This document shows, in pieces, positions 11,701 to 55,102 of a DNA stretch of 64,000 nucleotides. A program made the translations under genes and the position numbers. This DNA comes from Felis catus (taxonomy: Eukaryota). Location of the stretch: the NCBI RefSeq assembly GCF_018350175.1, contig NC_058368.1, forward strand, positions 47,184,001 to 47,248,000. Direction: 5' to 3'. Position 1 is the first letter of the stretch. The number at the start of each line of letters is the position of its first letter. Below the pieces are notes generated by a model. That model was not told where the DNA came from. It was given only the letters and a program-made list of their open reading frames with translations, and made no database searches.

Positions 11701-13037
11701 ATCACCATGGGTGATTAAGTGACCAGTGCAAGAGTCTCAGTTATGTTAATTATGTTAACAGTATTTTGTACTTTTATCCTAGTTCACTGAATGCCATCCA
11801 CAGCCAACTGACTACTGCCTTGGGAAGTAGGCAGCAAAAATTATATTCACAATGCTATAGATGGAAAATTAGCACAGAGGAAAGAAATGGCTGGGTCAGG
11901 CCCTCCAATTCAGTTGCAAATGTTAAATCTCAACTCTTAATTTATTAAGTTCTACTCTGCTCATGGAAATGCTTAAACCTGAAAAAAAGAACTTCAGTCC
12001 ATTATCACTAGACTCATTGACATCTCAGTGTGATGTCTCTTCTCTACTGGCCAGTTCATTCAGGTTTAAACAAATGTGAAAAATAAAGACCTATGTCCAG
12101 TGATACAAACTAGAAAACTTCTCAATTTATAACCATATCAAAAAGTTAGTAAACTGCACCACTTTTAATGCCTGTTAAAAGTTCCTTAATAAACTTAAAA
12201 CAGTAATTTAACTGTATTTTAGTGATCAGAAGAGTATTTGACTTCATATATTTTAGACTTGTAATTATGTCCCAATGGGTTGGCCTTTAATGCTTTTGGT
12301 GAGATGAGGATCAAGAGAAATGAAACGATATTTAAATGTCACTAATTAGACTACTATGTTACAAACCATTAAGATGCATAGTGAAACCTTAGCATTGTAT
12401 GATCCTCTCTTTTTTACCCACTAATGCCAGTTTTTAAGAAAGTTTCCCTTCCACCTCTCTGTCCTCCTCTAAAAATCCTAAGCTTGAAAAGTTCTATTAA
12501 AAGTACATAAACTTAGGTTTGACAAGACTTCCTGTAATTGCATAACACTAAGACTTCCATATTCAGGAGTCTTGTGTTCACCGTTTTCACTTGTTTGTAT
12601 AGCATTTATTGTAGTCATTTCCTAAACTCAAGGAGTTAAATTCTAGTTATTCTGGTTTTAGGACCAGGCTCTAATTTGACTCCAGTCCCTAGCATGAAGC
12701 AAGTTTCACTGGTAAAGTTCCTTAAACTATAATGCTAGAACTCTTTTGAGAAAAGTGTGTGTTCCAGGTAAGCCAACATGTGTAAGTACTGATGAAACTA
12801 GTATTTTACAGCAAAGACAATATATGATATTTACAGTCTAAACAATTCATTGCAGTGTACTTTTTTTTTTTTTTTGACAGAGAGCGTGAGAGAGAGAAAG
12901 AATGTGAGCAGTGGGAGGCAGAGCGAGAAGGAGGGACAGAATCCCAACTAAGCTCTAAGCTCAGCGTGGAGCCCAACGCAGGGCTCCATCTCACGACTGT
13001 GAGATCATGACGAGCAGAAGTCAAGAGTTTGATGCTT

Positions 13038-13828
13038 CATGAAAAGATGTTCAGCGTCGCTCCTTATCAGGGAAATACAAATCAAAACCACACTCAGGTA
13101 TCACCTCACGCCAGTCAGAGTGGCCAAAATGAACAAATCAGGAGACTATAGATGCTGGAGAGGATGTGGAGAAACGGGAACCCTCTTGCACTGTTGGTGG
13201 GAATGCAAATTGGTGCAGCCGCTCTGGAAAGCAGTGTGGAGGTTCCTCAGAAAATTAAAAATAGACCTACCCTATGACCCAGCAATAGCACTGCTAGGAA
13301 TTTACCCAAGGGATACAGGAGTACTGATGCATAGGGCCACTTGTACCCCAATGTTCATAGCAGCACTCTCAACAATAGCCAAATTATGGAAAGAGCCTAA
13401 ATGTCCATCAACTGATGAATGGATGAAGAAATTGTGGTTTATATACACAATGGAATATTACGTGGCAATGAGAAAAAATGAAATATGGCCTTTTGTAGCA
13501 ACGTGGATGGAACTGGAGAGTGTGATGCTAAGTGAAATAAGCCATACAGAGAAAGACAGATACCATATGGTTTCACTCTTATGTGGACCCTGAGAAATTA
13601 ACAGGAACCCATGGGGGAGGGGAAGGAAAAAAAAAAACAGGTTAGAGTGGGAGAGAGCCAAAGCATAAGAGACTGTTAAAAACTGAGAACAAACTGAGGG
13701 TTGATGGGGGGTGGGAGGGAGGAGAGGCTGGGTGATGGGTATTGAGGAGGGCACCTTTTGGGATGAGCACTGGGTGTTGTATGGAAACTAATTTGTCAAT
13801 AAATTTCATATAAAAAAAAAAAAAGAAG
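13038..13828 (+). mobile_element. 5'-truncated young felid LINE-1 (end of ORF2, 3'UTR, poly-A)
   Basis: ORF2 C-terminus, G-rich 3'UTR (13698-13739), AATAAA at 13798-13803, A-tail; perfect 15-bp TSD AAGAGTTTGATGCTT at 13023-13037 and 13829-13843. Confidence 0.97.
13039..13593 (+). pseudogene. L1 ORF2p C-terminal fragment (184 aa, cysteine-rich domain), no EN/RT
   Basis: [27 protein letters not shown]...[26 protein letters not shown]...[12 protein letters not shown]...CTPMFIAAL...[14 protein letters not shown] is the canonical L1 ORF2p C-terminus; uninterrupted. Confidence 0.95.
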
Positions 13829-15800: not shown

Positions 15801-17594
15801 ATCAGAAGCTTAACAGTCTTTCAGGGTAGTATTAGTAGTGAGAATTAAACCACATGTTGATTTCATTTTTTTTTTAAGGCTTGGAATCTCATCTTGATTA
15901 GCCTTATTAGTGTAGTGCCAAAGAAAACATCCAAATCAAATCTATTTTCAGTTAATATGGAGTAAAACATGCTCGAATTGGTAAGAAAAAAGTGAAAACT
16001 CTTCTAGAAATATAGTCAGAATACTATATGTAGAGGTTTAGAAATCAAATAATAGTTTATTTGTCCAGAAAGTCACCAAAAGTGTGATGACTTGGAAATT
16101 CTTCAACCCTCTGGCAAACCATTTATTATCAAAATCATTTTTTGAAATTAAGCAACGACCTTATAAGAAATTGCTGTATAATTGGTAAAGGACACAATAA
16201 AATCCCAAACAAATATACTCGTAGCAAAAATCCAACTGAAAACAAAAAGTCAACGGAATAAGAGCTATGAGTCATGACGTTCAGTGTGTTCAAACACTAA
16301 GATTTTTCAGACCCAAAGAGCATGATAGATGCAAATTCAATAAGCTGGAAAAAAATCAGATCAGCTCAGACTATTTTTATTACCACACAAAAATGAATTA
16401 AGGGAACAAAGATGTGATAGCAAACTACACTATTTCAAGGCGTTTCAACTCTCACCTTAAACTTAAATCTAAATCTCTTCTCAGATTTTAGCATATATAC
16501 CAACCGAGCACTGAGTAGTTTTAAAATCAAGTGGTTCTTAGCATCTAGAAGGAATGTTACAGATTCCGAGGAAGGCAATTTTCACTGGATTCTACAGCAT
16601 TCCACTCGAGCTTTCCTAGATTTCTGCATTTCAGGTCAAAGAAAAGGAAAGATCCTATCATGCAAGTTGATATTCTTCAGTCGTAAGCATGGCTACGCAT
16701 CCCTGTCCCAGTCAGCACGAGGGCACATTACAAGATAGCCAGCCAGGCTTCCAAATGAGCCATGAAGATTAATAAAATACAATCTCCAGCGGATGTTGGC
16801 ACCTCCCTGTCAAGCTAGCTAATGAGTACTGTGTTACTGTAAGAGTCAACTGTCACATTATCTCTGGACTAATAAATGGATTCTAAGACAAATAACAATA
16901 CACAACTAAAATTCAGTCTGAAAAGAGCTTTTCATTTATTGCAGCCTGGTGCAGCCCCAAGAGGCTCTCTAGCTGTCGACACCATAAGCAATGTCACTTT
17001 TTATAGGAAGTATTCAATAGGGGTGAAGTCAGTGTAGGAAAAAGAAATCTAGGGTTGTTTTTTCCAAATTCAGGGTTTAAAATTAATTGTTAAGTTTCAC
17101 TCATACAGATCTGAGAAATTTATATTTAGAGAAAAATGTGTCTAACTAGTGAGTCTGCCAGGAATGTAGTGGACAAAGCTTGTTTGGGGGAGATAGTTCA
17201 CATTTGGGAAATTTTTAATTTAAAATAAGAATCTATACCTTGTAGTGATACATTTATTAGAAATGAACTTCACCTCAGACATGAGATCCCACTGCAGTCA
17301 TTTTGTCTATGTGTCTTTCCAGAATCTGTACCAGAGGAAGGAGGCTGCACAGGAAACTATAAATGTTGACATCACACACATAATTCTGTTTCTGCCAATG
17401 CAGTGTCAGTATCCTCGAATTTATTCTGATTAAGAAAGTATATGCGTAGTATAATAGTAAGAAATAATTAGTTACAAAAACAATAGTTACAAAAGATCCA
17501 GTTTTGTGAGAATTGTGGTAAACATAGTGAAGGGCATGACAAGGAAATCATTTTATCTAGTTTGTAATTGCTATGAACAGAGAAAGAAGAACTC

Positions 17595-17621
17595 AAAGGA
17601 AGGGAAGGGAAGGAAGAGAGA

Positions 17622-17682
<61 letters not shown>

Positions 17683-17878
17683 AGAAAAAGAAAGAAAGAA
17701 AGGAAGGAAGGAAGGAAGGAAGGAAGGAAGGAAGGAAGGAAGGAAGGAAGGAAGGAAGGAAGGAAGAAGGAAAAGAGGAAAAATAAGGGAAGGAGGGAGG
17801 GAGGGAGGAAGGAAAGAGAAAGAAAGGGAGGAAAGGAGAGGAAAGAAAGGAAAGGAAAAAGAGAAGAGAAAGAAAAAA
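17595..17878. repeat. Compound (GAAA)n-(GGAA)n purine microsatellite
   Basis: 284 bp of A/G with one T (17784); roughly 14 GAAA units then roughly 16 GGAA units. Confidence 0.97.
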
Positions 17879-18959
17879 TATAGGAAGCACTCAGTGTCTT
17901 TGTGCACTCAAAGATGTTATTATTCGTTTTAATATTATTCGTTTTAACCCATCCATGTTTCATAATGTCCTCCTGATCTATCATTTATAATAACATAATA
18001 AACCAGAACTCGACATCAGAGAAAGTGTGCTTCTGAACATAGGTGGTAGAGGTTCATTTACTCACTAACTTCTGGGAAAATTGCAAAAGGGAAAGAAAGC
18101 ACAAAAGAATTACTTACATAATGGGTTGGATGTCTAGTCTCCCCAACCCAGTATTCAAAATTATGGTAGTAGCTTAGCACCTGTATTGGGGAAATGCTTG
18201 TTCCATTCGTCTTGAATTTCTATTGCTTTCGTGTTGTAAACTCGACCCCAGAGACCTAAGAGATCTTCGTCCCTCGCTGTATACACGCACTCATAATGTA
18301 CTCTGTGCAGCACCGGCACATAGTAGCTGCCTAAGAAATATCAGTCTCTCCCTCCCTTCCACACTAGCTCTTTTTCCTCCCTAACTCACTCCTTCTCCCT
18401 GCTCTGGATTTAACTTGCAAGCGCTAATTGTCCAGAAGATGGAATTCAGTTGTTCTGAAAGTGTTCATTCCACAGTTCTCCGTGCCCCTCCCAGCTCCAT
18501 CAAGATTGATACCAGGTAAGACGCTTGCAAAGGTTTTTCATACTCAAAGAGTTCAGTTTTTTCATTTCAATACTGGAATCATTCCACAAAATTTTAGTTT
18601 AGTTTAGGAAGCACACGAGATTGTGAAAATGTTAGCTACTGTTATTGCCATGACTATATTATTATTGCTGTTATGATGATGGCGAGGATGGTGGTTGCCA
18701 AGAAATTTACTATTTTCTTCAAACCATGTCACCCCTGAAAGAATGAGCTCCCCGGGTTTACCTCCTTCCATTTGAAATAGTGCTTCCCTTTATTTGTTTC
18801 TTGTATTTCCTACAGACCTGTAGAATAAAGGTTCTACACCCAAATTATTAGGTATTTATATCGTTTCATGCTTCGAAGAATGCTTTCTCATTCTCGTCCA
18901 CGTCGCCTTATCATTCTTTCACAGCTCTGGAGATCTTTGATATGTATGATTTAATTATT

Positions 18960-35800: not shown

Positions 35801-38800
35801 CTTATATTTCGAAATCTAAAGTTTCATACTGGTTCTTTAAAACCCAGTCTATATTGGCTCAATAATTGCACGGCTTGGGCATCTTATACAGATGGGAAAA
35901 TTAGTACCTATAATTAGGGCCGTGTCCCACTTCCCTTCATTTATGCTGTGATTTCAGCAGTGGCAACTGTGGTCTTTGGTTTACTGTTCTTAGTATCAGT
36001 CTCCCTTTCCAATTCACAGCTATAAACCAAAATTTTGGTTCTATCTGCATATTTCCAATGTGAAATCAAAGCATTCAGTCTGAGCAGATCGTTGTATATA
36101 CTGGTGAGAATGGAGCAAAAGAACTAGAGACAGTCTCATCAACAAGGTCACAATCCTTAAAATGACTTCTACTCATAGCCCCCATACCATTAGCAACACT
36201 GGACCTCTCAATAACACCAAACCAGAATATGAAATCATCTGTGCAGTCACTATACCATGAAAGTTAGAATTTATTAATTCAATCACTCAGTAACTTATCT
36301 TTAAATACTTTGGCTTTTTTTTTGAAGGGGTAAGGGAAGTGGTTGGCTGAGCAAACACAAGCGCCAAAGGGTTACTAAATACATTGTCTAAGGATTTTCA
36401 TTTTTCTTACTTACAATCTAAAACTTGAAATTTCTCCTGTTTCTCTTTTGTCTTCACTAACTGTGATTCCCTCAAACGTAATGCACTCTCTTTGGTTTTT
36501 AGGGGAATTGAAATATTTATCAAAATTGAAATGAAAGATAAACCCAAATCTACCTCACTAGATGGCAACTCAATGTCATCTGCGAAGAAAACTGAAGTAT
36601 TAAACCTAAGTCTGTTTGTATAAACAGAATTTTGGAGTTTTTTTTTTTTAAAAAACAACAACATAGATTTCATAGTGTTTCTATTTTTCGGTGCATAACC
36701 TGGGTTGTCTTCTAAAGCTTCAAACATGATTATACAACATCATTCCATAAATTTGTTTCCTAAAATTTCTCCATTCCCCTCATTAGTCTTTAAAGTTCCA
36801 TTATTTGCTTCCTTACCAGAATGTATTTCTCTAGAAACATTATATGGATATTATCCAGGTGTGTTAACTCCAGGGTTTTGGCTACAGTCCAGCTTGAACA
36901 ATTAGTTAAAATTCTCTTTTAGTTTTAACCAGATGTTATAGTCCTCATTTCCTGACCTAAAAGGCTCTTTCAAATTATGAAGAACTTTTAAATACTTGTC
37001 CCATTCTCTTTCAGAGCTAGCTGCACCTCAGTGCTAAATTAATATGGTCTGATATTCAGTATGTACATATAATTAGTGAGGTTTATACCACATTTGGAAT
37101 AAATCAGGCTTAAAAAATACTTCAAGTATGAGAAGGCAAGCATTAATTAACAAGGACTTACACGTTATATATTTTTTACTTTAAATCTCCTTTTGCCATG
37201 GTTTTGGCTGAGATTTCAATTACTGAAGAGATCGATGCATTTCTAAATTTCAGGTAGTTTCATCTGTTCAGAGAGACTGTAATCTTCCTACTGATAATAC
37301 CTCATAGCCACTTTGCATCTTATCAGGGCCCAGTCAACCCTGCTTATGCTGGAAGTTCTCAATATATATTTACTAACTTGTAGTATGATGCAGTTATATG
37401 TTTTTATAGTTGAAGAATTCTGAAAAGCCACCAGCATAGTTGAATCATTTTTTAGCCCTAATAAACAATATTAGTCATCCATGATCACAGCCATTTGATC
37501 TATTTTTTCTCTTAGTCTTTTAGTTCCTGTAGTTAGTTAACTCCTTACAGCCCTTAGGGGAGCCAAATTAAAGTAACTGTCCTTACTCGTCATTGGTTAC
37601 TGAAATTACCAAAAGAGCAGCCGCTGCAGGCCAGAGACAGTTGATGGCCAAAGGCAGATCCTCTCAGTTCTTAATTCTAAACAACCACAAACAAGGGTGC
37701 TGGGTTGGATGGAGGAAAGGAAGTAAAAGAAACATTTTAAAAGTGCAATCAACTGATTTGAAGAAAATCCCAATGATGTGTGGTATGTGCAATAGACATC
37801 TGAGAGAAAATACTGGCCAGAAGCTATGCTTAACCTTCCCTGTTCCTTACTTCTAGCAAACATTGAGACCAAATGCTTACATCTTTTAAATACAGCTCGT
37901 AGGTTGGTGGCGTTCTGTGTTTAGATAAAAGTGAGTTCAATATTTCTTTATTAATTTTAATGGTATAACAAGAATGGTGTATCATTTTGACATAAAGAGT
38001 TCAAAGTTACTATGCAAGCACTCCTCCATTAATCTTTTAAATATATTTGCTGGGTGAGCAGCCAACATAATCCTGCCTAAACAGATAAGAAAATAGAGAG
38101 CTGGTGATAAGGTGACTCCTTTAAAGCTTCACAACAAATCAGGGAAAGAGACGGAGCTCAAGTTCCCACCCATGCCCCGGGCCGCTTGCGCCTCTACTGC
38201 CCGTGCTCAGGAGAGGAGCAGTAAGCTGATGCTCGGGACTTGCAAATCACTTGATAAAGGAGCCTCATTCTGATCATTTCTGGAATGTTCAGAAGAGAAC
38301 TCCACAAGTGAAACGTCTGCAAAGTTCAGAAGAGAATTCCACAAGAAGTATTTTTTGTCATATTATCAGTATTTTGAGTCGTATCCCTTGCATAGCGTCG
38401 GCTTTTAATTATCTAGGGAATAATTATCCATTTGTGGTTTATCGAGGCCCCTTTCTTCGCCCTGCTTCCTGTCTTTGGGCCATTTCACTGCTCATTAATA
38501 TTTGCATCAGAGACCAGATCTGCTGATTTACTATGCTGGTGTGTCTAGTGAGAGATTTGGTGGGCAAAGAGATAGAAACCACTGAATTTGACACTAAATT
38601 CAGATAACCTTAAGGTTTAATCTGCCCATACTAGACGAGGTAGCTGAACTCAGTAACAATTGATAACATAGTTCATTTGTCAGGGAAAGGTCCACTCCTT
38701 TTTGTCTTTGATTCAGCATACCTACTTTTCTCTAATTCTATACTTGATGCTTATTATCACAGATAATTGAAATTTGACAAAAGACACAATCACCTGTGTG

Positions 38801-40079
38801 ATGGATTTTGGCAATGTTCACGTTTTTAAACTCTGCATTTCCCACCCCTAGTAAAGAAGCCTCAATAAATACATCTTCCATTTATTAAGGAGTAAGTGAA
38901 AGGCACGCTTGTTCCATGTTATCTGCAGGTTGGTAGATAAAATATAGCAATCAGCATCCCGCCACGCTTCCCCCTCAAGGATTCCCCTGCTTAAAGAACC
39001 AGTGCTGGTGGTGGCAGATTAGTAAGAAGTCGTGATTGCCTCATGAATCAGGGTGAAGCTTCTCACAGGTGCCAGTTGGTTTGATCTTCCTAGCCACTCT
39101 AGGAGGTTATATATCTTTTGTGATTATCACTCACAGGGATATCCTTGAAGGAAAATGAGGCCGCCTCACCAGAACACAACTAAATGAGACGCACAGAAAG
39201 GAACAGAGACGGTAGAAGAGGACAAGAGAGAGGATTCTTTTAGAGTCTACGCAAATAAAATGGAGTGTGTTGGTGAACTCCCTCTTGCTGCCACTCAAAG
39301 CCCTATTCCTAGAGCTGTGCTGACCGCATCAAAACAATGCTGCTGCATAAGCAAGGGAATAAACAAAGCAAAGACCCATTAGCTCTGTTTCCATTAGACA
39401 CGCGGAGGGTAAAAAAAAAAAAAGAAAAAAATCAATAACAGGCAAACAGAAGATAAAATTGATAGGAAAGAAATGTTAATTTTAGAGCTTTACAACAAGG
39501 TATTGCAAACAATGGCATGCAATAAAACCTTGAAAACTATTTTTAAAACTTTCAAAATCATTTACATGGGGAAAAAGAATTCTAGCAGGAACATATACAG
39601 CATATTAAACTTTAGTGCATTTTTAATGACTTGTCTTAAACAAATTATGCATGAGATAGATTACACATCCCTCACCCACTTAACAAAAAGGCATACGCAG
39701 GAACAAAAAACAAAACCAGGTGGCTTTTAAAAAGAAATTAAGTGTATGCTTGTGACTGATTGGGAGACATGCCAAGTGATGTGAAGGACCTCATAGAATA
39801 GAGTTCTCTCGAAAGAAGTTAGATTGATGGGCTTTTCAGCCCCGGCTGTAGGCAGAACAGTATAAATGATAGCGGTCTCCACTTTTGGATTCCATCCTGT
39901 AAATGCCCACAGCAGACAGGGTAGGAGAGCAGAAGGAATAGGAACTCTGGGATAAAAAGTCTTAGATTTCAGCCCCAGCACCCCCACTCATTAACTGTGC
40001 ACACTTGGACAGGGACTTCATCCGCCCTCCTTTTCTTCATTTGCAAGACGGAGATAATACTAATAATGCTGCCTTAGCT

Positions 40080-40515
40080 TCTTAACTTGGAGCGAGACCC
40101 CAGCCTTGGTATGTTTAAAGACCCCAGACTGTAGGTATGGTTCAAAAACCACTGGTTTGAGAGCATTGGTTCTCAAATTCGAGGGTGCATCTGGAGTTCA
40201 AAGCACAAAGGGCTGAGCCCTGCCCTCAGAGTTTCTGAGTCAGTAGATCTGGGGTTGAGGGGGAGAACCTGTATTTCTGACAGATAACCAGGTAATTCTG
40301 ACGTGGCTGGTATTGGGGCCACATCTGAGAACTTCCAATCAAGTCTTGGGATCCTGTGGTCTACATACCAGCCGGGTCAGCCTCATCCCAGAGCTTATTA
40401 GTCACAGAGACCCACTGAGACTTTGCTGGAAATCCTGGCCCATTCTGCTAACCCAGAATTGGCATTTCACAAGATTTGTACATCCATTAAAGTTTGAGAA
40501 CCTCCGTTCTAGAGC
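40080..40515. mobile_element. Cluster of MER5-type hAT-Charlie MITEs (clearest copy 40163-40336)
   Basis: cattggttctcaaattcgagggtgcatc...cagagtttctgagtcagtagatctgggg...ggggccacatctgagaac; extra MER5-like termini aaaaaccactgg (~40145-40155) and agtttgagaacctccgttctag (~40491-40512). Confidence 0.8.
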
Positions 40516-41584
40516 ATCTGCAGAGGTAACAGATCTAATAAAAAAAAAGATTATGCAAATCTGCTGTAGGGTATTTTAGAAAAGCCTCCCAATCTAAACA
40601 ACAGAAATCCAGGTTCTTGGCATTGGCATTCCGCTCCCCCCAGGAAGTCCTGTGTGTGAAACCGACAACATACACCAAGTGGAAGCAGCTATTCTCATCA
40701 AGCAAGGGGCTTACCCCCACTGCAGTGGGTGCCAGACTGCTGGGTGCCCAACTGAACATTGAGGCCAGGTTGAACAACTGCTATAGCATCTTTCCACTCT
40801 TAATATGAATTTTGTTTCCATAGAGGATGATCTTTTCAGTCATTCCTTATTCTCTTTCCTATCACCCCAAGAAGACTTTCTTTGTGTTTCCCATGGATGT
40901 GCTTATTTCCTATCTATGAACTCAGTGGTGATATGAATTTTGGTCAGAAGCAAAGCAAGCTGAAAAAACCAAGTGCATTTCCATTAGGAAGTTCCTTTAG
41001 GCTAAAGAGTCAGCGGGTTAAGTGTCAATGATCTAATATCAACCTAGCATCACAACGACCCCTTCATTCAAAGAAGTCTTCCCATTACGTGGAATACAAA
41101 TTCGAGCGCCAGCTTCACATTTGTGAGATTTATACGACCATTTAGAGAAATTCTTCTTGTAGCTCCTCTGATAACATCACTGGCAATACAAAGCTGAATG
41201 GTTCAAATCAGGTTTCATCTCAACTATGTAGTGGTTTAGTGTTTGAGGATGAACTTACAGACTATTAAATTTATAAAAACAAAGACAAATATACAACATA
41301 AAACAATTCAAGCTCCAAAAGCTTTATATTAGCTTTTGGAAAAGAATAGCTACCAAAAGAAAAAGGCAATGAAGATTAAATCTTTTAAGATTCAATTTGT
41401 CTATTTTGCCATATAAGGCCTAACCTTGCTGGAGACTTGGAATTATGACTTTATTTTTGGCCCCAACTAAGCAAGGCAGCAGATATCATTTCAATGATAA
41501 GTTTTACAGTAGAATAAATGAGAAGATACTCTGATTTTCAGAACTAACCCTCTCAAGTGATATTAATAATGTAACTATTATGGG

Positions 41585-41586
<2 letters not shown>

Positions 41587-41630
<44 letters not shown>
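41587..41630. repeat. (AT)22 microsatellite
   Basis: Read directly. Confidence 0.97.
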
Positions 41631-41633
<3 letters not shown>

Positions 41634-42949
41634 AACAATGTAAACATAAAAACACATGGACTTTTTAAGTTTTCATATGTGATTTCCTTCTTAAAAGTGA
41701 CGACATGGTGAGAACAAAAACAAGTAAACTATTAGAACCTAAGAGATGTTTTGGACAGAATTATTTTTCAGCCTTACAGTCTGTCTTCCTTCTTATCAAC
41801 TTTAAAAAGAGAAAAGATAGTATCTTTCTCACACAAATAAATCAGAACTCTAAGCACTGTCTCGCTTGCGAGAGAATGCCTTCTACTTCCAATAATGTTG
41901 CCTTTCTAATAAAGCATTTCTGTATGTGTCTTTTTTTTCTTGATGCTAGTTTGCTGCTGCGTTAAGATTTCTCTTAGCTTTATGGGAATTAAAGAATTCA
42001 TTTTTCTTCATTGCGAGGATGGAAATCTCTCTGCTATCTACTTTCAGGCAAGACTTTATTAACAAATCCCATGGCAAAATCCACCACCTACCTGTCGAAA
42101 AAGGTGTGATCTTTCCAATCGAGATGTGCTTAGAACCTAAGCAGCTCCGTTATCCTTTTGTGTTCTATATATTTATCCCTGCATCAAGGAATGATTTATC
42201 TATAAAAGATACCATACATATTTGAATTATTCTTATTTATGCATTATACTAAAGCTTTAGGAATAACGCCCTGGTATCTCCCCCAGGGAGTCCTCCGGGA
42301 AGACTTTGGGAATGATAAATGTTGAATTTGTGTTGCACAAGCAAACAAAATCTCCCAGGCCACAATTTTTTTCTTTTTTAATACAATAGCTCAAAAGCCT
42401 TTTCTCAGACATCTGGAGACAAGAGAGGTTCAGAACAAAGTCAACACCCCAACCAGAGGGTGATACCTTGAGGGCAGGAACCCTACAACCTTGTCATCAG
42501 TCTGCGAGGGCTGTGAAGTAGCAAACAGTCTGCTTGGTGCGTGGATGGGCTGGAAGAGCAGAACTCTCCCCACTTGTAACCACTGTGTATAACCTCCTCC
42601 CGTCCCCACCCCCGGTCTATAAACCACTTTGTTCTACAGAGAAGAGTGGCTTCTTGAGAGTAACGTACAACACTAACACGGAATAAGACGCTTGTCCAAC
42701 CGAAAAGAGGTTTTGAGCTTTTGTTCTGTTAACTTCCGCTTCTGTTGACGTGGTTAGGATGTTAAGCTTTTGGAAGGCAGTTTCTTTGCAAACCCCACCA
42801 GGGCTCACCCAAATCTTGGCACATAATAGTTGTTGGTTAAACTAAACTGCACTGACTTAGTGAAAGCCATTTAGTGTTGACAAAAATAAATACATTAATG
42901 CACGGCTCTACAGCGCTCTCGTTAGATCCTATTTTAAACCTTCCTTTCA

Positions 42950-43075
42950 AATTTTATGTTAAGTTTTTGATTCGGTAATGCATGCAGATGATACAAAATT
43001 CAAAGAAGTATTAAACATCATCCAGTGAGGAGCAAGCCTCCACTCTGACTCCCAGGTACTCAGTACTCAGTATGG
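42950..43075 (-). mobile_element. Ancient L1M(E)-type 3' end fragment
   Basis: ggtaatgcatgcagatgatacaaaattcaaag...cagtgaggagcaagcctcc resembles reversed L1ME 3'UTR. Confidence 0.5.
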
Positions 43076-44892
43076 GAGGGAAGGTTGATAGCTGGCCTTT
43101 TTATAAAAGGAAGTATTTGGTGGTGGTGGTTGTTTTTGAGGACGGTGGAAAACGAATGCTTTTTCCTTTGGCACTTTAATCCTTAACTTTTCTTGGCCTT
43201 TTCAGACCTGGAAAACAATCTCTCTTTAAGATAAATAAAACCCAGGACACCACCTGAAATCCGCAAACAGTACTAGTAAGGCTGGTAGTAGCAAGTCTAA
43301 AAGCCATCCACCTGAGACCACGACCACGCCTGCCAGCCCGAGAGTCACATTGCCAACAGCATCGACGAGGGCGGGTCTTACCTTTAACGACCTTGTGCCA
43401 CGTAGGAACAGGCTGCAACAGAAGTCTGCATCGAAAGGTTCCTGCGTTGCCAAGGTTATTTCTCAAAGATATTCCGACAGCCAAGCAGCAGTCTTAAGAA
43501 AGCAGTGAGAAGTTTCAGCTTTTTCTCATCCAGTGGGTAGAGATAAACCACTCAGAGTAAGAATAAAGATTGAGGATTCAGATCAACAGAGCATCTATAC
43601 TACAGCGTTTCCTGATGTTTCAAATCTCCTGCTCTTGTTTTTTGTTTGTTTCGCTTTGCTTTCTTTTGTGAGGTTACATGGACTTTTCACCTGTGTATAG
43701 GAGCACCTTAATTTCACTACAGCGCAGAAGAAAATGTGTGTTCCTGCGCACTAAACACAAACGAAGAAAAGTGTTTTGGCCCTATAGGAAAACAGTAACC
43801 TCACTATCACTGTTTGTGATTTTATATTATGCTCTAGTGACTTTAGAAAAATCCCTTAATATTTCTTGATATGCTTCACAACCTCTACTCTAAAATAGTT
43901 TTAAGGAAGGAAAATAGAAAGGAAAAGAGTTAACGTTAAAAAATGCATTTTGGAGACAATGACAAATGCATCCTATGAAGAATTATGAAATGTTTCATAT
44001 TATGCGTGCCTCTTTGACACCAACCCATAACACTGGCTTTGACCAGAGATAACTATCGCTTAGGCATTTGATGAGCATTAAATTGTCTTTGGATATTTTT
44101 TAAGTACCTGAGATTTCTCAGGTACTAGAGAACGCTAGATTAAATGAAAGAATACTACAAGCAGATCATCTGAGGCAATTATGGATTTGCAAATCACTTC
44201 TACAACTCAGGATGCTATTTCATTCTCTGAGCAGTTGGTGTAAAGTGGTACATAATTTGAACAATCACCTACTAAAACTTGCAAGCACACGCCTAACGCT
44301 GATTTTTGCAAAATGCATGATAACGCATACTGTATGTTGGAAGGTAAGACAGAGCCCTTAATGTTCCCCTAAGGATGTCTCTTTTTCTTCATTCTCTCCA
44401 ACAGCAATGGTCTTTGCTTCAGGTTCCCTAGCCTAAAAACGATTTATAAATGATTTCAACTTTGAGAAAGTGAATCAGATTTAATCCAAAAAGGAAAAAG
44501 AGAGATAGTAGCATTTACACATTTCTGGAGGCTGGCAGCAAGATAAATCCAATGTGACAAATCTCTGTGGGCTATTAAGTGGATTTTGTTATGGAAAGCA
44601 CACATAAGGCATGCCTAATGAGAACGTAGGGTGCTGGGTTTTGAGAAATGGGCTATTATTTATGAATTCTAGGTGGTATCCAAAAGAAATACATTTAAGG
44701 GCTTAAACACTGATCTCTCCAGGCCCTGGACTTGGCTCTAGGCATTACTCAAAACTGAAAATACGGCATGTATGTGATCCTTCAGATAACCACACATTTT
44801 ATAGGACAATCCATAAGTCTTCAAGGCCTCTAGGCTTTTCATTTCACTAAACAAGATCCTAATTTGAGATTGTCAAGGACACAATCTGTGCC

Positions 44893-45100
44893 ATCATGGA
44901 AAGAGCTCTATCCTAGGAGTCAGAAATTTTGGGTTCAAATCCTGCTCCAGATCCCAGTTTCTTTATCTATAAAATAGTGTGATAATACCTGCCTTGTACA
45001 CTTAATAATGTCCTTGTGAGGTTCAATGAGATAATGTACTAGGAAGAGATTTTGAAGTGTGAGTGCTTTAGACATGTCACATATTAGCATTATTAATACC
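44893..45100 (+). mobile_element. MIR
   Basis: ggaaagagctct...ggagtcaga...gggttcaaatcctgctcc...cagtttctttatctataaaa...gtgaggttcaatgagataatgta. Confidence 0.85.
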
Positions 45101-45440
45101 TGGGAATTCTTTGGGACCACTTAGGATTGCCTCTATGTCAAAATAGCCCCATGGCCAGAATCTGGAGATGCAAGGTCCTCTCCCAGCCCGGGAGAATTAT
45201 CCAATCCAATTTCTTTGCAAAGAAGTCCACGAGAGCAGAGTTGCCAGGAGCTAATCACATTAATATAGAAGCTTTACTCTCGTTCACCAGATTGTGTGCT
45301 ACGTGGACCCAAATCCTGCTTTGTTCATCTTTGTATCCTAAGCGTCCAGCAGAGTTAACTCTCACCAAATAACTGTGAATGAAGTGAAATGAATGAGATG
45401 TCTGCTACTGGCAGCAGCCTAAGTGAGGCATTTTGACAGA

Positions 45441-46060
45441 TATATGAGTCAGAGTTCAGAGAATCAGAACCACCAGGAAATATATACATACAAAGGGATT
45501 TACCATGGGGCTTGGGCTCTGCTCAATTGTGGGAGCTGGTTAAACAGTACATGAAGGCTGTTGCTTTTGTGTTTGGTGCCGAAGCCCGAAGGCCGTAGGG
45601 CAAGCAGGCAGGAGGAAGAGATGGCCGTGAAGAGGGGAAACGAGGACAAGATGGAACCACAAGGATAATTCGAATCTGCAAAGGAGGGACAGGAACCTAC
45701 ATCCGTGTCTCATACACACACCCCCATGAGACCCCACCTTTGATGATGAGGATGTTCTACAGGTGAAGCTTATGTTCTTCATCCGAGAGCTAAACACATA
45801 CCTGGCCCGGGGATGCAAGAGACTGAAGGAGGAGATCCAGCAGGCCCACGTGCTGCCCCACACCAACCAGGTGAGCCAACAGATGGGTGACAACATACAT
45901 GGGCTGCAGTGGCACCATGTGCCCTGGATGGATGTTCCAACTGCAAGAGATATGGCTGCAGTTTCACTTGCACCTTCCAAGTGTCACTCAAAATGTCTCT
46001 CATGGTCCACGAACTCTGAAGAGAAGGGAGTTCTGGGACATAAGCGTTGACCATCTGCTG
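45441..46060 (-). mobile_element. Old ERVL-class solo LTR (resembles the MER76 family as recalled; name unverified)
   Basis: tatatgagtcagagttcagagaatcagaacc at 45441 is a decayed reversed ERVL LTR 3' end (tgtattagtcagggttc); aattgtgggagctggttaaacag, atggctgcagtttcacttgcaccttccaa and gaagggagttctggga are LTR-type blocks; right boundary approximate. Confidence 0.7.
45757..45933 (+). pseudogene. APOA4: Captured fragment of apolipoprotein A-IV coding sequence inside the LTR
   Basis: LQVKLMFFIRELNTYLARGCKRLKEEIQ------QAHVLPHTNQVSQQMGDNIHGLQWHHVPWMD aligns to recalled human APOA4 [65 protein letters not shown], 29/59 identities by hand with one 6-aa gap; a fragment, not the gene. Confidence 0.85.
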
Positions 46061-49000
46061 GCCGCCTGGCACTTTGTGTACTCCTCAGAATCCTTCAACT
46101 CTGTGAAGTGATTAGCTTCCCTGTTTCATAGATGAAATCTACAAGATCCCTTATGTGTCCTCCTTGGAGCTTCAAATGCACCCTACTCCAGGTCTGTGGT
46201 CCATGCCCTTTTCCTATACTTTTACCTTGGAGCAGCCGGAGCATTAACACATGGCCTCAGCTGGCTTTGAGTTCTCCTCAGGGCAACCTTGAGGAAAATG
46301 CACAGCCTCTAGAAAGAGCTTCTTTCAACTTCCCCATCCTCAACAGCAACACAGATACAGAGCTGACACTTTTTCACATTGTCCCTTCAGTGTCACTTAA
46401 AGAGGTCCAGGGAGGAATGAAATGTAAACCCCGGAGAGAAAACCCTCAGACAGTGGGAGGAGTTGGGAAAAGCTGATGGAGCCCTCTTAGCCTACACTCT
46501 TAAAGTTCAGCTTAGGTCTCTCCCCTCGAATGTTCCCATGTGCACTCAACAAATATGTCCTGGGGAGCCTTCATGTGCCTGAGTGGCCTGGCTGTGACCG
46601 TGTGTGTCATACCACTCAGAAGACATTTGTTCCCTACCTGAGAGCCTCCTGAAAACCAGCTCACATTCCTGAGTATCCTAGTTAATGATATTAGGTACAT
46701 TTTACAATTCTTGGTTTCTTAAATGTGTAACGGCTCAAACAGCCATTTCCAGTAGGTAGTCCTCTGTCAGACATACTCCTCCAGCGTCTCCTCAGGCCAG
46801 AAGCTCTCTGGAAATCATATTTCACTTCATCACAGAGTATTTTAAAAGTTTGATTCTGAGAATGAAGACAGAGAAGTCACTTGTGCCTTGGGAAGAGAAA
46901 TACATGAATCTGAATTTGAGGTTCAAGAAAATTTTTAGATCTTAGAATAGATTTCATAGATCATATGTACAAACAATGTTACCAAGAGTGTAAGTTTCGA
47001 AATCTTTAAAAATATTTAAATATAAACACTAAGAAAATCAACTAAAATGTAAGTTGCATTTTTTACGTCTCTCTTTGTTATCAATGTGTACATAAGCTGA
47101 GTAAGGAATAGAATCAGTTCTGTTTCATTTTAGAATTAACATGTCTTCCTTGTATCCAAGGCAGGCCTTAGGCAAGTTGGGAAGTAGAGGAAGTTGAATA
47201 TTTCAGAGCCCTTCAAGCCTGCATCCTGCCAGAAGGTATTCTAGAACCCATAAGCCAGAAACTTCCAAATACAAAATTAATTTCTCCTCCGCCCTTGAAT
47301 TTCTCTCCGTGTGCAACACCAAAAAAGCAGGTTAATACATTTGTGCACCAGAATTAACGATGACCAGGGCTGAGAGCACCATTCCATTTTACAGAGACCT
47401 TCAAAATCTAAAAAAGTGACTGATAGAGGTCTTCCAAAATTTTCAGGAGGGCAAATGAGGAAGATATTTTGTTAAAGGGGTCAAGGAAAGTCGGTCGCAG
47501 CCAAAAAAGTGAATTTGCATTTTTAATTAAAGAAAGATGGAAATTATACAGAAAAGTATTGTGGTCATAAAGTAAATAAAATACGGCTCATGGCAAAAAT
47601 GCACTTTTGTGTCATTCTCCTTTAGGTAACACATTATTTCCATGCAGTAACATATTTTTAGGAGAGGAGAAATCACCTTTTCCATCTCTTTTCCTATTTC
47701 ACATTAGAGTTTTTTCCAAGGTCGTTAAGATGAAAAAATGACAGTAGACTTTCTTATCAACAGCTTGTTCCAACAGATACAATACATGGGTTGGGGATCA
47801 AAAAGAGCATGAGAAGCATTTCTGCCAACATTGTAGAAAATATTGAACATCTGCTATATCTGGGATCCTGGGAGTTGTAATTATAATTTTTTGAAATCTG
47901 TACACAAGAGTTATAAATATTAGAACTGTAGCCTGTGATAGCCATGAAATATTTAACTTGTTTGGCAGGCTGAAGCAAAACTCATAAACTTAATTTAAGC
48001 AAGCCAAACACTATAGTTTCACCAATTTTACATCTTTCATGTCATTAGTTAGATAAATTAAAGCCAACCATAAAACAGCCTAGAGATTGCCGACTGGAAG
48101 TCCTAGGGGTATACCAAAAAAAAAAAAAAAAAAAGTATATTTTGAGAATTAACTCATTTCGTTGTCAGTTTACCTTTCCCAGTTATCCACACTTGTCAAA
48201 GACTCTGGTTTGCGGACACGGGACGAGTTGTTCAGCAATGGCTTCAGGGTAAGTCAAGAGCAAAGTAGACGTCAGGCATCTTAAGCAGGTTCACAACAGC
48301 CACAAAAAGAACGGAAGGCCACTGGTGATTTCCGCAAGCTTCGGCTCAATCCGTCAAACACCATCCACCACCCCGAGTGAAAGCCTTTCAAACCTGAGAA
48401 CAAAGCCCTGGTAAGTAGCTCTGTGCTGCTGTACCGGGTAAGCGGAGACGCTAAGAAGCAGAGAGAAACCAGGTCTCCCTCGTGTTAGCTCTGTGGCCTG
48501 GCTGCAGAAAGGCATATGGGCTAGAATATTCTACTGTGTCCATCTTACACGAGCCTTTTAGGTTGAACACGTGACAGCGATAACCCAGCCAACTTCACTG
48601 CCTATTTTTAAGTTAAAAGTACCATACAGTTAGCTTTCACACTGCCTCGTTCATACTCCTCCACACCCCCTACCCTCACTCCAGGCCCAGAATTCTCCCC
48701 AATAAGAAACTAAGGGTAAGTATAGTCACACTATAGATTTTGAATGAAAATCATCGATGATGCTACCATTTATTAAATAGCACTTTAGTTATATGATATC
48801 TTTTTGCAATTGAACCTCGAAGCAATCCTGTTTATGACTATATGTAAGTGACTTTTACAAATCAAAAAAAATAAATAGCCCCAGGAAAGCTGGGAGATGT
48901 GCCCACAACCACACAGCTGACAGCACTGAGCCTAGTCCTCAGGTGTCCTGAGACTTGGTGCGGCACTCCCGTCACAAGGGAGGCACCTCATTCACAGAAT

Positions 49001-49689
49001 TTCTGCTCGACGGGCGTCTGGAAGCAGGACGGAGCTGAGCAACTCCAAGTCCAGAGCCCTGCTGGTGGGGTTTCCAGGACTCACGGCTTCCCTCCTCCTG
49101 GCCCTTCTCTACGCCCTGGCGCTTTTTAGATTCAGCATCTCTATTAAAACTTCCTACTCCTCTTTCCCTGCCTTGTCTCCCTCTCTTAACCCCTACAAAG
49201 GACTGAAACTGGCTGTCAGCTCTGGGGCTTGCCACAGTCATAGCAGCCTTTGTTAACAAGTTAAGAATCTACAGGAATCCCCTCTTTGCTGTCTCTACAC
49301 TCTGTACATGAGAGCAATCAAATGGATCAGCTGGAAACCCCTAGCTGCGAATGCATAAAAGAGCAAATGAATAGGAAAGTTCAAACGAGATATTTCACTG
49401 AAACATCCTGCTGATCCCGTTTTATTCTGCATTTAAGAAAATAATACCCATGCCCAAACAGCCTCTTTCTCCCTGAACTAGAGGGTTGATATCACACAGA
49501 CTGTCTACACAGGGGAACCAATTCAAGGCAGAACTGAAAGTTCCAGTTCAATGCAATCAGCCCATGTCATATGTCTGGGGCCCATCCAGCGGGCTGCGAA
49601 TGTAAAAGAGCCGATGTGCGCTGCCAGTGGCCCACACAGGCAGGAACTGATGCCTGAGGTTCGCTTGAATGGGAAACGAGGTTAAGGTT

Positions 49690-49870
49690 TTCTCAGTGTC
49701 TCCTATGTGCCAGGTACTGTGCAAGGCTTTCTGTGTATGTTTCTTCATTCGTTTTTACAGTAAGCTAATGGGATAGATCTTAGTATTAGTACCCCCCTTA
49801 CGAACAGACATTAAGTCAGTTCCTTAAGATTAAAAAGTTAGTAAGTGGACGATATAAATATTGTATGCAA
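49690..49870 (-). mobile_element. MIR remnant
   Basis: ctcctatgtgccaggtactgtgcaaggcttt...ttagtaagtgg. Confidence 0.6.
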
Positions 49871-52351
49871 ATATGTAGCAAATGGAAACTTTAGGGAGAT
49901 CTACATTCAACTCACCCCTGAGAACTGTGGATTTCTTGGCCTGCCTTGACTCAGGACACAGAGCCAAGATGACAAGGAATAAGCTATTTAGGCTCTCCTA
50001 GTGGTTCCCACATTCTTGGACAGCTGTGAAGATGCTAAAAACAATCAGGTGTTAGTTCTAGGGGAGTCCCCACAAACTGCTTCTCCAGTTCCTCCCCGCA
50101 GTCCCCCCAAAATAGTCATGGTCCCTGGAGGTCATGGGGAATGTGGTCCTGCCTCCTATGACCAAGTGGTGAGGAACGTGACAAAGCTGGGCTGCAGAAA
50201 CAAGGGACCTTGTCCTCCTCCTTGTCTTCCTTTTAATCTTCATCAGGGATAAAGCACACACACAAAAAAAGGATCAGCTTCAAGGCTCAAAGATTTTCAA
50301 ACAGGGTAATTAAAAGTCATAAATGTTATGATTTGACATTATTTTTCTTTTACAAAGAATAAAAAATGGGAAATTCCAACAGCTTTGCAGAGGCATTCAA
50401 CTCAGTTCCCGCTGGTAATTGAAAACTCCAGTTCTGCTGCACTGGGACCGAGGCTTCTTGCCCACAGGAGGGCATCACCTCTGATTACACAGACAGGTTC
50501 AAGGTTCTGAGAGGCCCGATGGATGAGTGCCAGGAGAAAGCAGAGCAGGAGTACTTAGCGAGACCTGCAGCGTGTGGGCGGTCAGGTGCCTGGGTGCTGA
50601 CACCTTGCCGCTTTGATTCTCTGGCTGCACACAGGCAGTGTAGACTCAGGAAACCTTTCCGGGGCCGCGTGTGAAAGGGAAAGCTGTTACTCTTCCAAGA
50701 CTGAATAGTGACAGAATCAACTCCACCAGGACCCCAGATCAAGCCGCCCTGTCCTGTGGGAACCGCATTTTCCTCTAAGATTGCTGGGCTTGTTTACATG
50801 TGTTTTATTCTGAGCTACAGTAATCTGTTCACAAGAGACAGAAATCCTGGTAAATCAATCCTTAAAGCCTGTTGACATTTGTCCACTTGGCAGATCATAA
50901 AAGCCCCTTGAAAATCACAGGAGAAAATGTGTAAACCGCTTACCAAATTATATGATGTAAACGCCAAGAGAAGGCGTTCTGCAGGATAAGATCACTGAAT
51001 CGTGACTGCCTTCCGAATGTAACTTTATTTTGGTCTTGGGTTATATGTGAGGAGTTGCCAAGATCAACTGAAAGAGAGACAAAGATATATAAATGCAGCC
51101 CAAAAGCTGACTTTTAAGTTCTGTGTCTTCAAAAAGACTGGAGATTCTTTATGAGATGTAGTTTCGCATAAACAATCTTTGCTAACAAGAGTTTTCCCCA
51201 AGTATCAGTTAAATTTTAACTAGTTCCCTGTAAATGTTGTGTTGAGTGCCAGAAATAATGTCAGAGTTTTGAAAGACAAAACTAGAACTAGAGGAAGCTT
51301 CGTGGCATAAACACACAGAGAAAATACCCTGGAATGGTTGGTGGCAATCAGACTGAGAGGGGCTGAGTTCAAGGGTACCGCCACCACTTTCCCCAGATGT
51401 CTCCAGAGAGACTTCTCAGAAGACTTGAAGAGGAATGTAATAGAATAATTACGCATGAAGCCATGGTAATAATGTCCTGATAACAGTGTAGGTAAATATC
51501 TACCACAAGCCGTTATACCTGAATGGAGGTGTATCCCAGGCTCTATGAGCAATCAGGTCCAAAGTCTGAAACCCTCTTAATGGATCAGGTAATCTCTCTA
51601 AATTCCATTTCAAACCTTTGCCTCAGTTGCCTAACAATTAACTGCTTGTATTTGAATCTTCCGTAAAAACAGTGTTAGTTTCATGACATCTCTTCACTGT
51701 TTCACACATCGTACTAGATGTTCAGCTGGAAGGGAGAAGCGAGTGTTTCTCATGAATGCTGCCAGGTATACTTGGGCAAGGAATTCCCTTAATGTTCATG
51801 CATGCCTTGCATCTACAATAAAGCTGATGGTTAAGGAGTAGCTCCCAGGTCTCCACTATAACAGGAAGCCCTTCATGTGTGGAGAGCTCTTATGGACAGG
51901 AGAGGTGTGACCTCCTTCTGTGAGAAGAAGCTGGGCAGGTTTAGTACTATCCAGGGACCCCACCTCTTTCTCCAGGTGAGAGTTATAAATATGCTCCCTG
52001 GCCTCCAGGAAGGGTTTGCTAATGGTTTGTAAGACCAGTGACTCGGTTCTTCTACAACGCACGTGCAGGTGCATATCACACCACCACAGGATCTCACATG
52101 GATAAGGAGCCTTCCCCGGGAACTGATTCAACATCCTCTTGAATGCACATATTCTGTCTCTGGTACGTTCACGCAAGTCTCATCCAGCCTGTGAAGACAA
52201 GGAATGTTAATCCCCGAGGCAGCCCTTTTCAGCTTTGGACAGGTCTAACTCTCCAAAACTGATTTTTCTGAATAACCCTTAGCATTAGTTTAATTTCCTA
52301 ATAAGGATATTTTTATTTCATGGCATCCTAAATAAGAAATGCAATCCCCTC

Positions 52352-52577
52352 GGGGCACCTGGGTGGCTCAGTCGGTTAAGCGTCCAACTTCCGCTCAGGT
52401 CACGACCTCATGGTTCCATGAGTTCGAGCCCCACATCGGGCTCTGTGCTGAAGGCTCAGAGCCTGGAGCCTGCCTCAGAGTCTGTGTCTCCCTCTCTCTC
52501 TGCCCTTCCCCTGCTTATGCTCTTACTGTCAAAAATAAATAAATATTTTAAAAAAATGTTTTTTTAATTTTTAAAAC
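52352..52577 (+). mobile_element. Can-SINE (SINEC_Fc type)
   Basis: ggggcacctgggtggctcagtcggttaag head; TSD aagaa(a/c)tgcaatcccctc. Confidence 0.96.
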
Positions 52578-53786
52578 AAGAACTGCAATCCCCTCTTCCT
52601 GAAATAGGGAGCAGAAGTCAGGAAAGAGCCAGCATTTGTGTGTGACTTTGGGAGACTTTTCCTCGCCATTCGTCTCAGTTCAGGAGAAGAGACAGCATCT
52701 AGCATGCAAGCGGCTGCCCCTGCCTGGCGTCTTGGTTTAGGGGGTTCCATGGCCTGCCCCGGTAGGAGCAGATCCTACTGTGGTTCTTTGCAGTTTTCTC
52801 ACATGTCAATTGTGCTACCTCTACTGATGGAAGAGGTTTTCAAATGTAATCTAGATGATGTGTTCCACTTATCCTGTCTTCATTCCACATACATTTGGTG
52901 GGTGACTATAATTATATGTCAGTTTCACATTCTGTGGTGATTAAGACACAAACGCCTCTCTTCAAAGAGGTGATTGTCTAGATGAGTAAACAGGCAGGTC
53001 TCGTACCTCATGATTAGGACAAGAGCTCCACAAAAGGTCTCCCACCCTGTAAAAGTGCTCCTGGGGGATCTGATGTCTGGGAGAACCAAGCAATAGGCAA
53101 GTAAGCAGGGAACAACAGAATGTCTCCCAAGCAAAGGGAATAGACTTTATAAAAGACCAACGTGGGGCGAGCATGATATTTTCCTGGAACCACATAGAAC
53201 ATGGTTTCTATGTGGATAGGAGAAAATGTTTGTTAACATCCTCTGCATATAAGACATGTGTATGGACAGCTGAGTCGCCATGATGTTGAGAAAGAAGGGA
53301 CAGTTTTTTCTTGAAACAGAGGAAATGCTACAGACCAGAGCTGGCAGTAATCCTGAGAAAGTACAGTTTATCACTCATTGGTAATGTTTAGAAATTTCTG
53401 AAGAAAAGTATGTACTGAGCTGGAATTATGGAGTTTTAGGGTAATTTCTAGGACCGACATTCATGTAGGACCCACTATGTGTCAGGTGCTATGTATATAT
53501 ATAATGTATTTGATCCTCATGCTTATAAGGAAATTGCTGCTTTCTTCAGATAAACTACCTGGGAGCTCCCAGTTTGATTCAGGACAGAGAGGGTGCCTCC
53601 ATCAGGATTCCTGGCTCATTAGCTTTTGTCACCAGTGTCCTGGCCTCTTAGAGGTGCAAGTTCCTCTGACCCTCAGCCTTTCTTTTATTACCCTGTGGCA
53701 CTGCTGAGATACAGCTGGAATGTTTAAAAAGAATAACTAAGGCCATGGGGACAACAAAAGGAAAACAAACAGAATAACATGAACAC

Positions 53787-53802
53787 TAAATAAATAAATA
53801 GA

Positions 53803-53841
<39 letters not shown>
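53787..53841. repeat. (TAAA)n microsatellite
   Basis: Read directly; one TAGA interruption. Confidence 0.95.
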
Positions 53842-53920
53842 GACATGTGTATGATGTGCTCTGCACAAAAGACTTTATGCATTAAACCGTGTGTTGGTGT
53901 TTAAGTTATACTTGAATATT

Positions 53921-54137
53921 GGGCGCCTGGGTGGCTCAGTCAGTTGAGCGTCTGACTTTGGCTCAGGTCATGATCTCACAGTTCATGAGTTCAAGCCCCA
54001 CATTGGGCTCTCTGCTGACAGCTCAGAGCCTGGAGCCTGCTTCAGATTCTGTGTCTCCCTCTCTCTCTGCCCCTCCCCTGATCATGCTTTGTCTCTCCTT
54101 CTCCTTCAAAAATAAACATTAAAAATATATATTTTTA
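53921..54137 (+). mobile_element. Can-SINE (SINEC_Fc type)
   Basis: gggcgcctgggtggctcag head; TSD aagtta(t/c)acttgaatatt. Confidence 0.96.
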
Positions 54138-54432
54138 AAGTTACACTTGAATATTAAAGATTAAAATAAAATATGCTAACTTATCCAGAAAGGAAGCACT
54201 GAGATATAAAGATAAAATGTTGTTGTGGCTTTGTGGCACTCACAGTCTGGTGGAGGCAGTATTTTTTTTAACTTGTATTTAGTCTAAAGCATCATGACCA
54301 AATAGTAACACTGGATATTTAGTTAAGTGGAAAGTTTTTGAATTATTTTCAGTAATTGGGTCTAATAAATAGTCTTATGAGACAGAAACCCAAAATAGAA
54401 ATCTCCTACTTCTACTTGTGATGTTCTTTCTC

Positions 54433-54467
54433 TTTTTTTTTTTTTAATTTTTCAATGTTCATTTATT

Positions 54468-54516
<49 letters not shown>

Positions 54517-54680
54517 ATGAGCAGAAGAGGGGCAAAGAGAGAGGGAGACACAGAATCCGAAGCAGGCTCCAGGCTCTGAGCTGTCAGCACAAAGCCAGCC
54601 ACAGGGCTCAAACCCACAAACTGTGAGATCATGACCTGAGCTGAAGTCAGATGCTTATCCGACTGAGCCACCCGCGCCCC
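54433..54680 (-). mobile_element. Can-SINE (SINEC_Fc type) with long (GA)n
   Basis: T-tail, (GA)n, ends gagccacccgcgcccc; TSD tctttctc. Confidence 0.95.
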
Positions 54681-55102
54681 TCTTTCTCCTCTTAATAGAA
54701 AATGGCAATAGTAATCAAAAATAGTTAAGTCCTGTCCTTGAATGTTAACTGAAAACCAAAATGTATTCTGGCCAGTGATTAGCTCAATGATTGTTCCTTC
54801 TTTTGACCTTTGAGAGGCTCTACAGAGGTAAAAAGATAATGAGCTGAACTGAGTTGGAGGGAAGACTGATGTGTGTAGAGTGTGGACATAGCAAGGAACA
54901 GGATATAGGAAGTAGCTCCCCAGAAGAATATTCTGAAAAGGAAGGAAACCATCTCTGGCAGTTAAATGTTTACCAAGAAAGGAAAACTAGTGGACAACAG
55001 TAAGGAGAAGGAAAATTTGACTAAAACAAATGTTCTGGATTCTACTTAAAACCTCTCCTGGCCCCTATTCAAGGAATGTTTTCTTAAAATCTTATTTTAA
55101 AC

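Follow-up and report, generated by a model that had tools for sequence, protein, structure and literature searches.

A decayed APOA4 fragment, probably captured in antisense orientation within an old ERVL-type LTR, in the genome of Felis catus

The window analysed here is a 64,000-nucleotide stretch of Felis catus DNA (assembly GCF_018350175.1, contig NC_058368.1, positions 47,184,001 to 47,248,000). It carries a fragment of about 180 bases from the coding sequence of apolipoprotein A-IV (APOA4). The flanks of this fragment are likely to be a long terminal repeat (LTR), presumed to be of ERVL type. The features are listed below in window coordinates; P numbers denote matches from the protein searches described further on.

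45441..46143, minus strand: decayed sequence of about 700 bases, presumed to be a solo LTR of ERVL (ERV3) type, with inferred ends
45499..45504, minus strand: hexamer with a weak, two-mismatch likeness to a poly(A) signal, some 60 bases inside the presumed 3' end
45501..45756, no strand assigned: non-APOA4 stretch left of the fragment, shared with P0010 (40.9 bits, 0 of 60 shuffles) and weakly with P0023 (17.1 bits, 2 of 100 shuffles)
45730..46050, plus strand: stop-free frame of 106 codons, of chance-level length, with an ATG at 45772 that opens a 92-aa ORF
45757..45936, plus strand: APOA4-derived fragment (E 3.9e-10), antisense to the presumed LTR, with codon-position GC and CpG decay
45837..45844, plus strand: net six-codon gap relative to APOA4, common to the close homologues and placed elsewhere in P0023
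45937..46040, no strand assigned: non-APOA4 stretch right of the fragment, shared with P0010 and P0022 (0 of 100 shuffles each) and weakly with P0023 (2 of 100 shuffles)
46041..46143, no strand assigned: variant LTR 5' end or host flank of a truncated LTR, present in P0005 and P0011 (0 of 100 shuffles each) and absent from the P0022 tail

The original prediction gave a translation for 45757-45933 and a stop-free frame at 45730-46047, both of which were reproduced exactly, and likened the product to APOA4 with 29 identities and a six-codon deletion. A phmmer search of 177,635 PDB sequences with the 106-residue frame bears out that likeness. APOA4 chain 9hx4_F is the best match (E 3.9e-10, query residues 10-69 against chain residues 76-141), and the alignment printed with it contains 29 identities and a net six-residue gap. 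APOA4 chain 3s84_A is second (E 3.8e-08), so APOA4 accounts for the first two of three PDB matches, as had been anticipated; the third and last at E<=10 is an unrelated coiled-coil protein (E 0.18), and no apolipoprotein besides APOA4 was found in these sequences at that threshold. The similarity to APOA4 is significant and specific, and from sequence comparison the APOA4 origin of 45757-45936 is real. Pfam assigned no family to the window frame.

The fragment corresponds to residues 76-141 of the APOA4 precursor, and a profile of eight homologues extends the match to residue 144 (E 5.6e-16). We take residues 76-144 to lie in the last exon of APOA4, and given this assumed exon layout the fragment crosses no splice junction. 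In comparison with the APOA4 chain it represents about one sixth of the length, lacks the signal peptide, carries the six-residue gap and is broken in homologues. Its GC content is 56%, versus approximately 40% for the window, with values of 0.63, 0.27 and 0.77 at codon positions 1, 2 and 3. CpG is depleted (observed/expected 0.22), with TpG at 1.95 and CpA at 1.56. Together, the codon-position GC and the CpG depletion point to old coding DNA that was methylated and then decayed. No further copies of the fragment were found elsewhere within the 64-kb window, and word-index protein searches, one of them limited to 439-2000 residues, returned no full-length APOA4.

Read on the minus strand, the presumed LTR starts with TG at 46143 and ends with TA at 45441, both termini having been picked by eye. 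Candidates for its right end are about 46143, in place of 46060, and about 46040. The 45441 end presumably resembles those of ERVL/MaLR LTRs. By ends and length we likewise presume a resemblance to MER76 and MLT2E/MLT2F; the original prediction named MER76 and we lean towards the MLT2E/MLT2F type, and both are ERV3 LTR names. The same element, a presumed LTR, lies on both sides of the host piece, as P0010 matches the flank to the left (0 of 60 shuffles) and the flank to the right (0 of 100). The fragment belongs to the 5' half of this presumed LTR, so that its transcription from a solo LTR would require a start site upstream of the fragment. Elsewhere in the window, 29726-29783 matches the element end at 45430-45484 weakly and not significantly (69% over 58 bases, E 0.13).

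No other apolipoprotein exon or retroviral ORF was found with Pfam among 100 ORFs within about 8 kb, in agreement with the original prediction that no other exon lies nearby. Adjoining gag or pol sequence was likewise absent, with 0 of 100 ORFs of 52 or more codons in 37291-54961 matching Pfam at E<=0.001; this test covered 100 of 111 listed ORFs, and short decayed frames would escape it. Rfam returned 0 matches in the window, and a scan for tandem and short repeats gave nothing notable. A SINE of approximately 220 bases, of a cat-family type, occurs in at least 14 copies across 1301-63863 that are 68-92% alike. To the left of the element, 44890-45050 presumably represents a MIR fragment and 45280-45400 an L2 3' end; the left flank shared with P0020 lies partly inside the latter. 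An open frame of 186 codons at 13033-13593 on the plus strand reads like what we assume to be the C-terminal end of L1 ORF2, and a purine-rich simple repeat at 17461-17984 gives rise to several spurious long ORFs. Among 24 sequencing runs listed, 20 contain the stretch, one of them labelled feline metagenome. Six of the 20 are RNA, and three of these six (gut or mammal metatranscriptomes) cover 0.73-0.90 of words over 1.8 kb; neither figure has a bearing on expression.

A HMMER search of 1.84 billion representative proteins gave 12 matches, of which 11 are unnamed Logan/ENA ORFs that contain the APOA4 piece. The remaining one, P0006, an insect tandem repeat, was discarded as an artefact. Cluster mates P0020, P0022 and P0023 stood in for P0009, P0012 and P0014, and the homologues were aligned to the window DNA with a frameshift-aware, neutral-divergence score. 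Pfam assigned no family to the 13 homologues searched, save for repeat-driven matches of P0006 and one sub-threshold match of P0014. DNA relatives were sought in viral, metagenome, GTDB, plasmid and phage collections and none was found, the 66 + 7 pattern matches being due to chance, and the ESM Atlas held no usable relative.

Eight of the ORFs are close to the window, at 1.8-2.8 bits per codon. P0020 matches 26 codons of left flank beyond 45441, outside the element (0 of 100 shuffles, 54.6 bits). On the right, 46060-46155 is matched by both P0005 and P0011 (0 of 100 shuffles each). These ORFs therefore look like the same locus in other mammals. The shared outside flank of P0020 also indicates that the insertion is old. 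P0003, P0004, P0007 and P0013 are probably the same locus as well, judging by their level of similarity and the shared gap. The position of the ATG is common to P0003, P0004, P0005, P0013 and P0020, and the frame is open throughout the piece in P0003, P0004 and P0020. P0005 and P0008 are near-identical over the first half and were counted as one lineage. The sets P0005/P0015/P0016 and P0008/P0018/P0019 are near-identical to one another and stand one frameshift apart inside the APOA4 piece, an indel within one lineage.

The other three ORFs, P0010, P0022 and P0023, are more diverged from the window (0.9-1.6 bits per codon, with one 8-codon stretch of P0023 at 2.3) and match it within 45501-46040 only. 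They are also distant from one another, with pairwise scores of 36-56 bits versus 60-77 bits to the window and a shuffled maximum of 15. In P0022 the 87-residue tail is unlike the right flank of the window, an equal score being attained by 47 of 60 shuffles. P0023 matches APOA4 at E 0.005 with its six-residue gap at another place; it aligns to APOA4 residues that are absent from the window and lacks residues that the window keeps. P0022 reaches APOA4 in the PDB at E 0.32-0.54 only, and P0010 alone has no PDB match. A common tail of the three diverged ORFs after about 46040 was considered and is not supported, as 35-98% of shuffles equal its score, in a comparison that was possibly underpowered. 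Taken together, the mutual distance, the shared flanks, the P0022 tail and the P0023 gap favour separate repeat copies. These three translated ORFs are therefore likely to represent separate copies of a dispersed repeat, and we favour a repeat source that would have held more of APOA4 than the window copy.

The main rival to this account is a truncated APOA4 retrocopy made by L1, which landed once in an existing LTR or in unique DNA, so that the diverged ORFs would be copies of this one locus from mammals that are distant or evolve fast. Such a single event would suit the 8 of 11 homologues that look like the same locus, and the homologues are unnamed ORFs that carry no species label. The grades of similarity also overlap, with P0023 at 69-84 bits and P0020 and P0011 at 82-102 bits to the core group. 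What speaks against a single retrocopy is the existence of three mutually distant copies, together with the different gap position in P0023, the unmatched P0022 tail, and the absence of both a poly-A tract beside the fragment and, in a scan at the element ends, a target-site duplication. The match stops at residue 141-144 of 396 and no A-tract follows it, so the fragment does not have the form of an L1-made processed pseudogene, in line with the original prediction. We consider the single retrocopy unlikely.

The plus-strand frame shows decay rather than constraint. Four of the eight close ORFs, or three of seven lineages, are frameshifted inside 45757-45936 (P0005, P0008, P0007 and P0011). 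P0013 breaks off after 41 residues. All three distant ORFs are frameshifted inside the piece or at its edge. The homologue search favoured open frames, yet the frameshifts are present. Identity in the APOA4 frame (148/237) does not differ from that in the remainder (433/716; Fisher p=0.64), which comprises 64/105 out of frame within the fragment and 369/611 outside it; these counts are pooled over six close ORFs, with P0005 and P0013 omitted, and are a protein-level proxy, not dN/dS. By the same protein-level proxy, an intact frame is not maintained under purifying selection. The frameshifts and the lack of excess in-frame identity leave no sign of coding function, and the fragment in this solo copy is likely to evolve neutrally, as far as sequence comparison can tell.

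The length of the open frame is unremarkable, since an open frame of at least 106 codons, in one reading frame or another, turns up in 42.7% of 2000 resamples drawn from 45441-46060 with a first-order Markov model; the frame is most likely incidental. An unnamed ORF in the protein collection, P0002, is 99% identical to it. The first half of the peptide is amphipathic, with a maximum 18-residue hydrophobic moment of 0.66 that is reached by 0.5% of 2000 shuffles. The mean moment is 0.35 (matched by 1.4% of shuffles), and values lie below 0.3 across much of the second half. This pattern is a trace of APOA4 origin and no evidence of use. The original prediction had proposed a dispersed lipid-binding module. 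Its dispersal is likely, as the piece travels with non-APOA4 flanks in the diverged copies; a functional module does not, given the frameshifts, the lack of in-frame excess and an amphipathic first half only. A coding function is likewise unsupported, given the frameshifted close homologues and the identity comparison.

We conclude, with a probability of about 0.7, that a piece of APOA4, now decayed, was captured once in antisense into an old ERVL-type LTR, was copied to several loci and is now neutral in this solo copy. Such a single antisense capture of APOA4 last-exon sequence into the ERVL-type LTR could have occurred by LTR-mediated template switching, a known mechanism. By established retroviral biology, a piece placed in the 3' LTR would be present in both LTRs after one more round, and it would thereafter have spread passively with the LTR. 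Copying to both LTRs would explain a family-wide spread without host benefit. The antisense orientation would require an antisense template or an insertion at the DNA level. A study of mouse describes an opposite-strand transcript that overlaps APOA4 exon 3 and the 3'-UTR, with a similar signal in human liver (PMC5291254).

That natural antisense RNA is described as affecting APOA4 mRNA in mouse (PMC5291254). This effect and the antisense orientation of the fragment bear on the proposal that the copies act at the RNA or DNA level, either through LTR-driven APOA4-antisense transcripts that tune APOA4 mRNA or through regulatory sites given to the LTR by a captured CpG-rich exon. We regard such action as improbable: the piece is no better conserved than its flanks, just 29 of approximately 60 residues still match APOA4 and pairing would be poor, its place within the 5' half of the supposed LTR may put it upstream of the start site, and the CpGs have decayed. 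Very improbable, in our view, is a broader scenario in which many antisense copies of APOA4 last-exon sequence, drawn from natural APOA4 antisense RNA, were scattered through placental genomes by a family of ERVL LTRs. Some copies would still be active, either by tuning APOA4 through LTR-driven antisense RNA or by encoding an amphipathic, lineage-restricted microprotein in the ATG frame that has stayed open in this genome.

The carrier might also be a mobile repeat other than an ERVL LTR, either an LTR of another class or a non-autonomous element. Weak LTR hallmarks lend this some credit. A scan with left ends at 45438-45443 and right starts at 46030-46199 gave no perfect 5- or 6-base target-site duplication, although its loss is common in elements of such age. 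There is no poly(A) signal with one mismatch or fewer anywhere in the element, the hexamer at 45499..45504 having two, and no convincing TATA box was found in the presumed LTR. The nearby ORFs tested also include no internal retroviral one. Set against these are the length, the TG start and the presumed likeness of the 3' end to ERVL/MaLR LTRs, along with two independent, tentative family assignments (MER76 and MLT2E/F) that both point to ERV3. We hold a carrier of another kind to be highly improbable. The least credible alternative, that the plus-strand ATG ORF at 45772-46050 (92 aa) is translated as a microprotein reusing the APOA4 amphipathic helix, is very unlikely: the shared ATG, the frame kept open in three homologues and the high moment of the first half are outweighed by the frameshifts in half of the close ORFs, the early end of P0013, the lack of in-frame excess identity in a frame of chance-level length, the low moment of much of the second half, the missing signal peptide and a strand opposite to the presumed LTR promoter.

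The fragment is likely to be a fossil of a known gene-capture kind, not a working gene, and no new function is indicated. The mechanism of capture is known; the unusual parts are the position inside the LTR and the antisense orientation. The locus is a clear example, in a mammal, of a piece of host coding sequence lying antisense inside a presumed LTR, capture into the internal region being more usual. If the capture is family-wide, the copies would form a dated neutral record of the ancestral placental APOA4 exon, and they would also give rise to false calls of APOA4 pseudogenes or ORFs.

The APOA4-bearing sequence is probably present in repeat libraries already. No description of an APOA4 piece in an LTR was found in the literature searched, a scope that left most subscription papers and the Repbase/Dfam entry notes outside, and the same search found no paper linking MER76 with apolipoprotein or ApoA-IV. 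The available parts of PMC11353194, PMC4724089, PMC9927554, PMC3649676, PMC7805219 and PMC2584115 contain nothing on an APOA4 piece in an LTR. MER76 and MLT2E/MLT2F are listed as ERV3/ERVL LTRs, as names only and with no mention of an apolipoprotein, in Kojima (2018, PMC5753468). Frith (2022, PMC9004415) dropped host-gene fossils that overlap RepeatMasker annotations, a filter that would hide captures such as APOA4 in an LTR.

The closest parallels are the LTR-mediated retrocopies of Tan et al. (2016, PMC5131818). In that paper, partial host mRNAs are described as captured by double, microsimilarity-dependent template switching and spread by later rounds. Three human cases are given among primate-specific loci, to which the human screen was restricted, including HERV-K/FAM8A1, and APOA4 is absent from the main text. 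The APOA4 piece resembles these retrocopies in that an incomplete stretch of host coding sequence has LTR-element sequence on either side, with no poly-A tail and with probable secondary spread. Unlike the cases of Tan et al., in which an internal ORF is replaced and the host piece is more often sense-transcribed, it apparently lies inside the LTR, is antisense and is much older.

Two further systems compare with the APOA4 piece. ERV-Hako, with pieces of the SUSD6 and SPHKAP 3'-UTRs (Frith, 2025, PMC11905727), is similar in being an ancient mammalian ERV that holds a non-functional host piece in several copies; it differs in being a Group II ERV of primate age with UTR cargo, reported in the relic body and not in the LTR. 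In crocodilians, ERVs have likewise taken up and amplified host genes, as in CrocERV29 (KIT-ligand) and CrocERV31 (nectin3) (Chong et al., 2014, PMC4299795). There the ORFs sit in the internal region, are intact and evolve under purifying selection, whereas the APOA4 piece is broken and bears no sign of selection.
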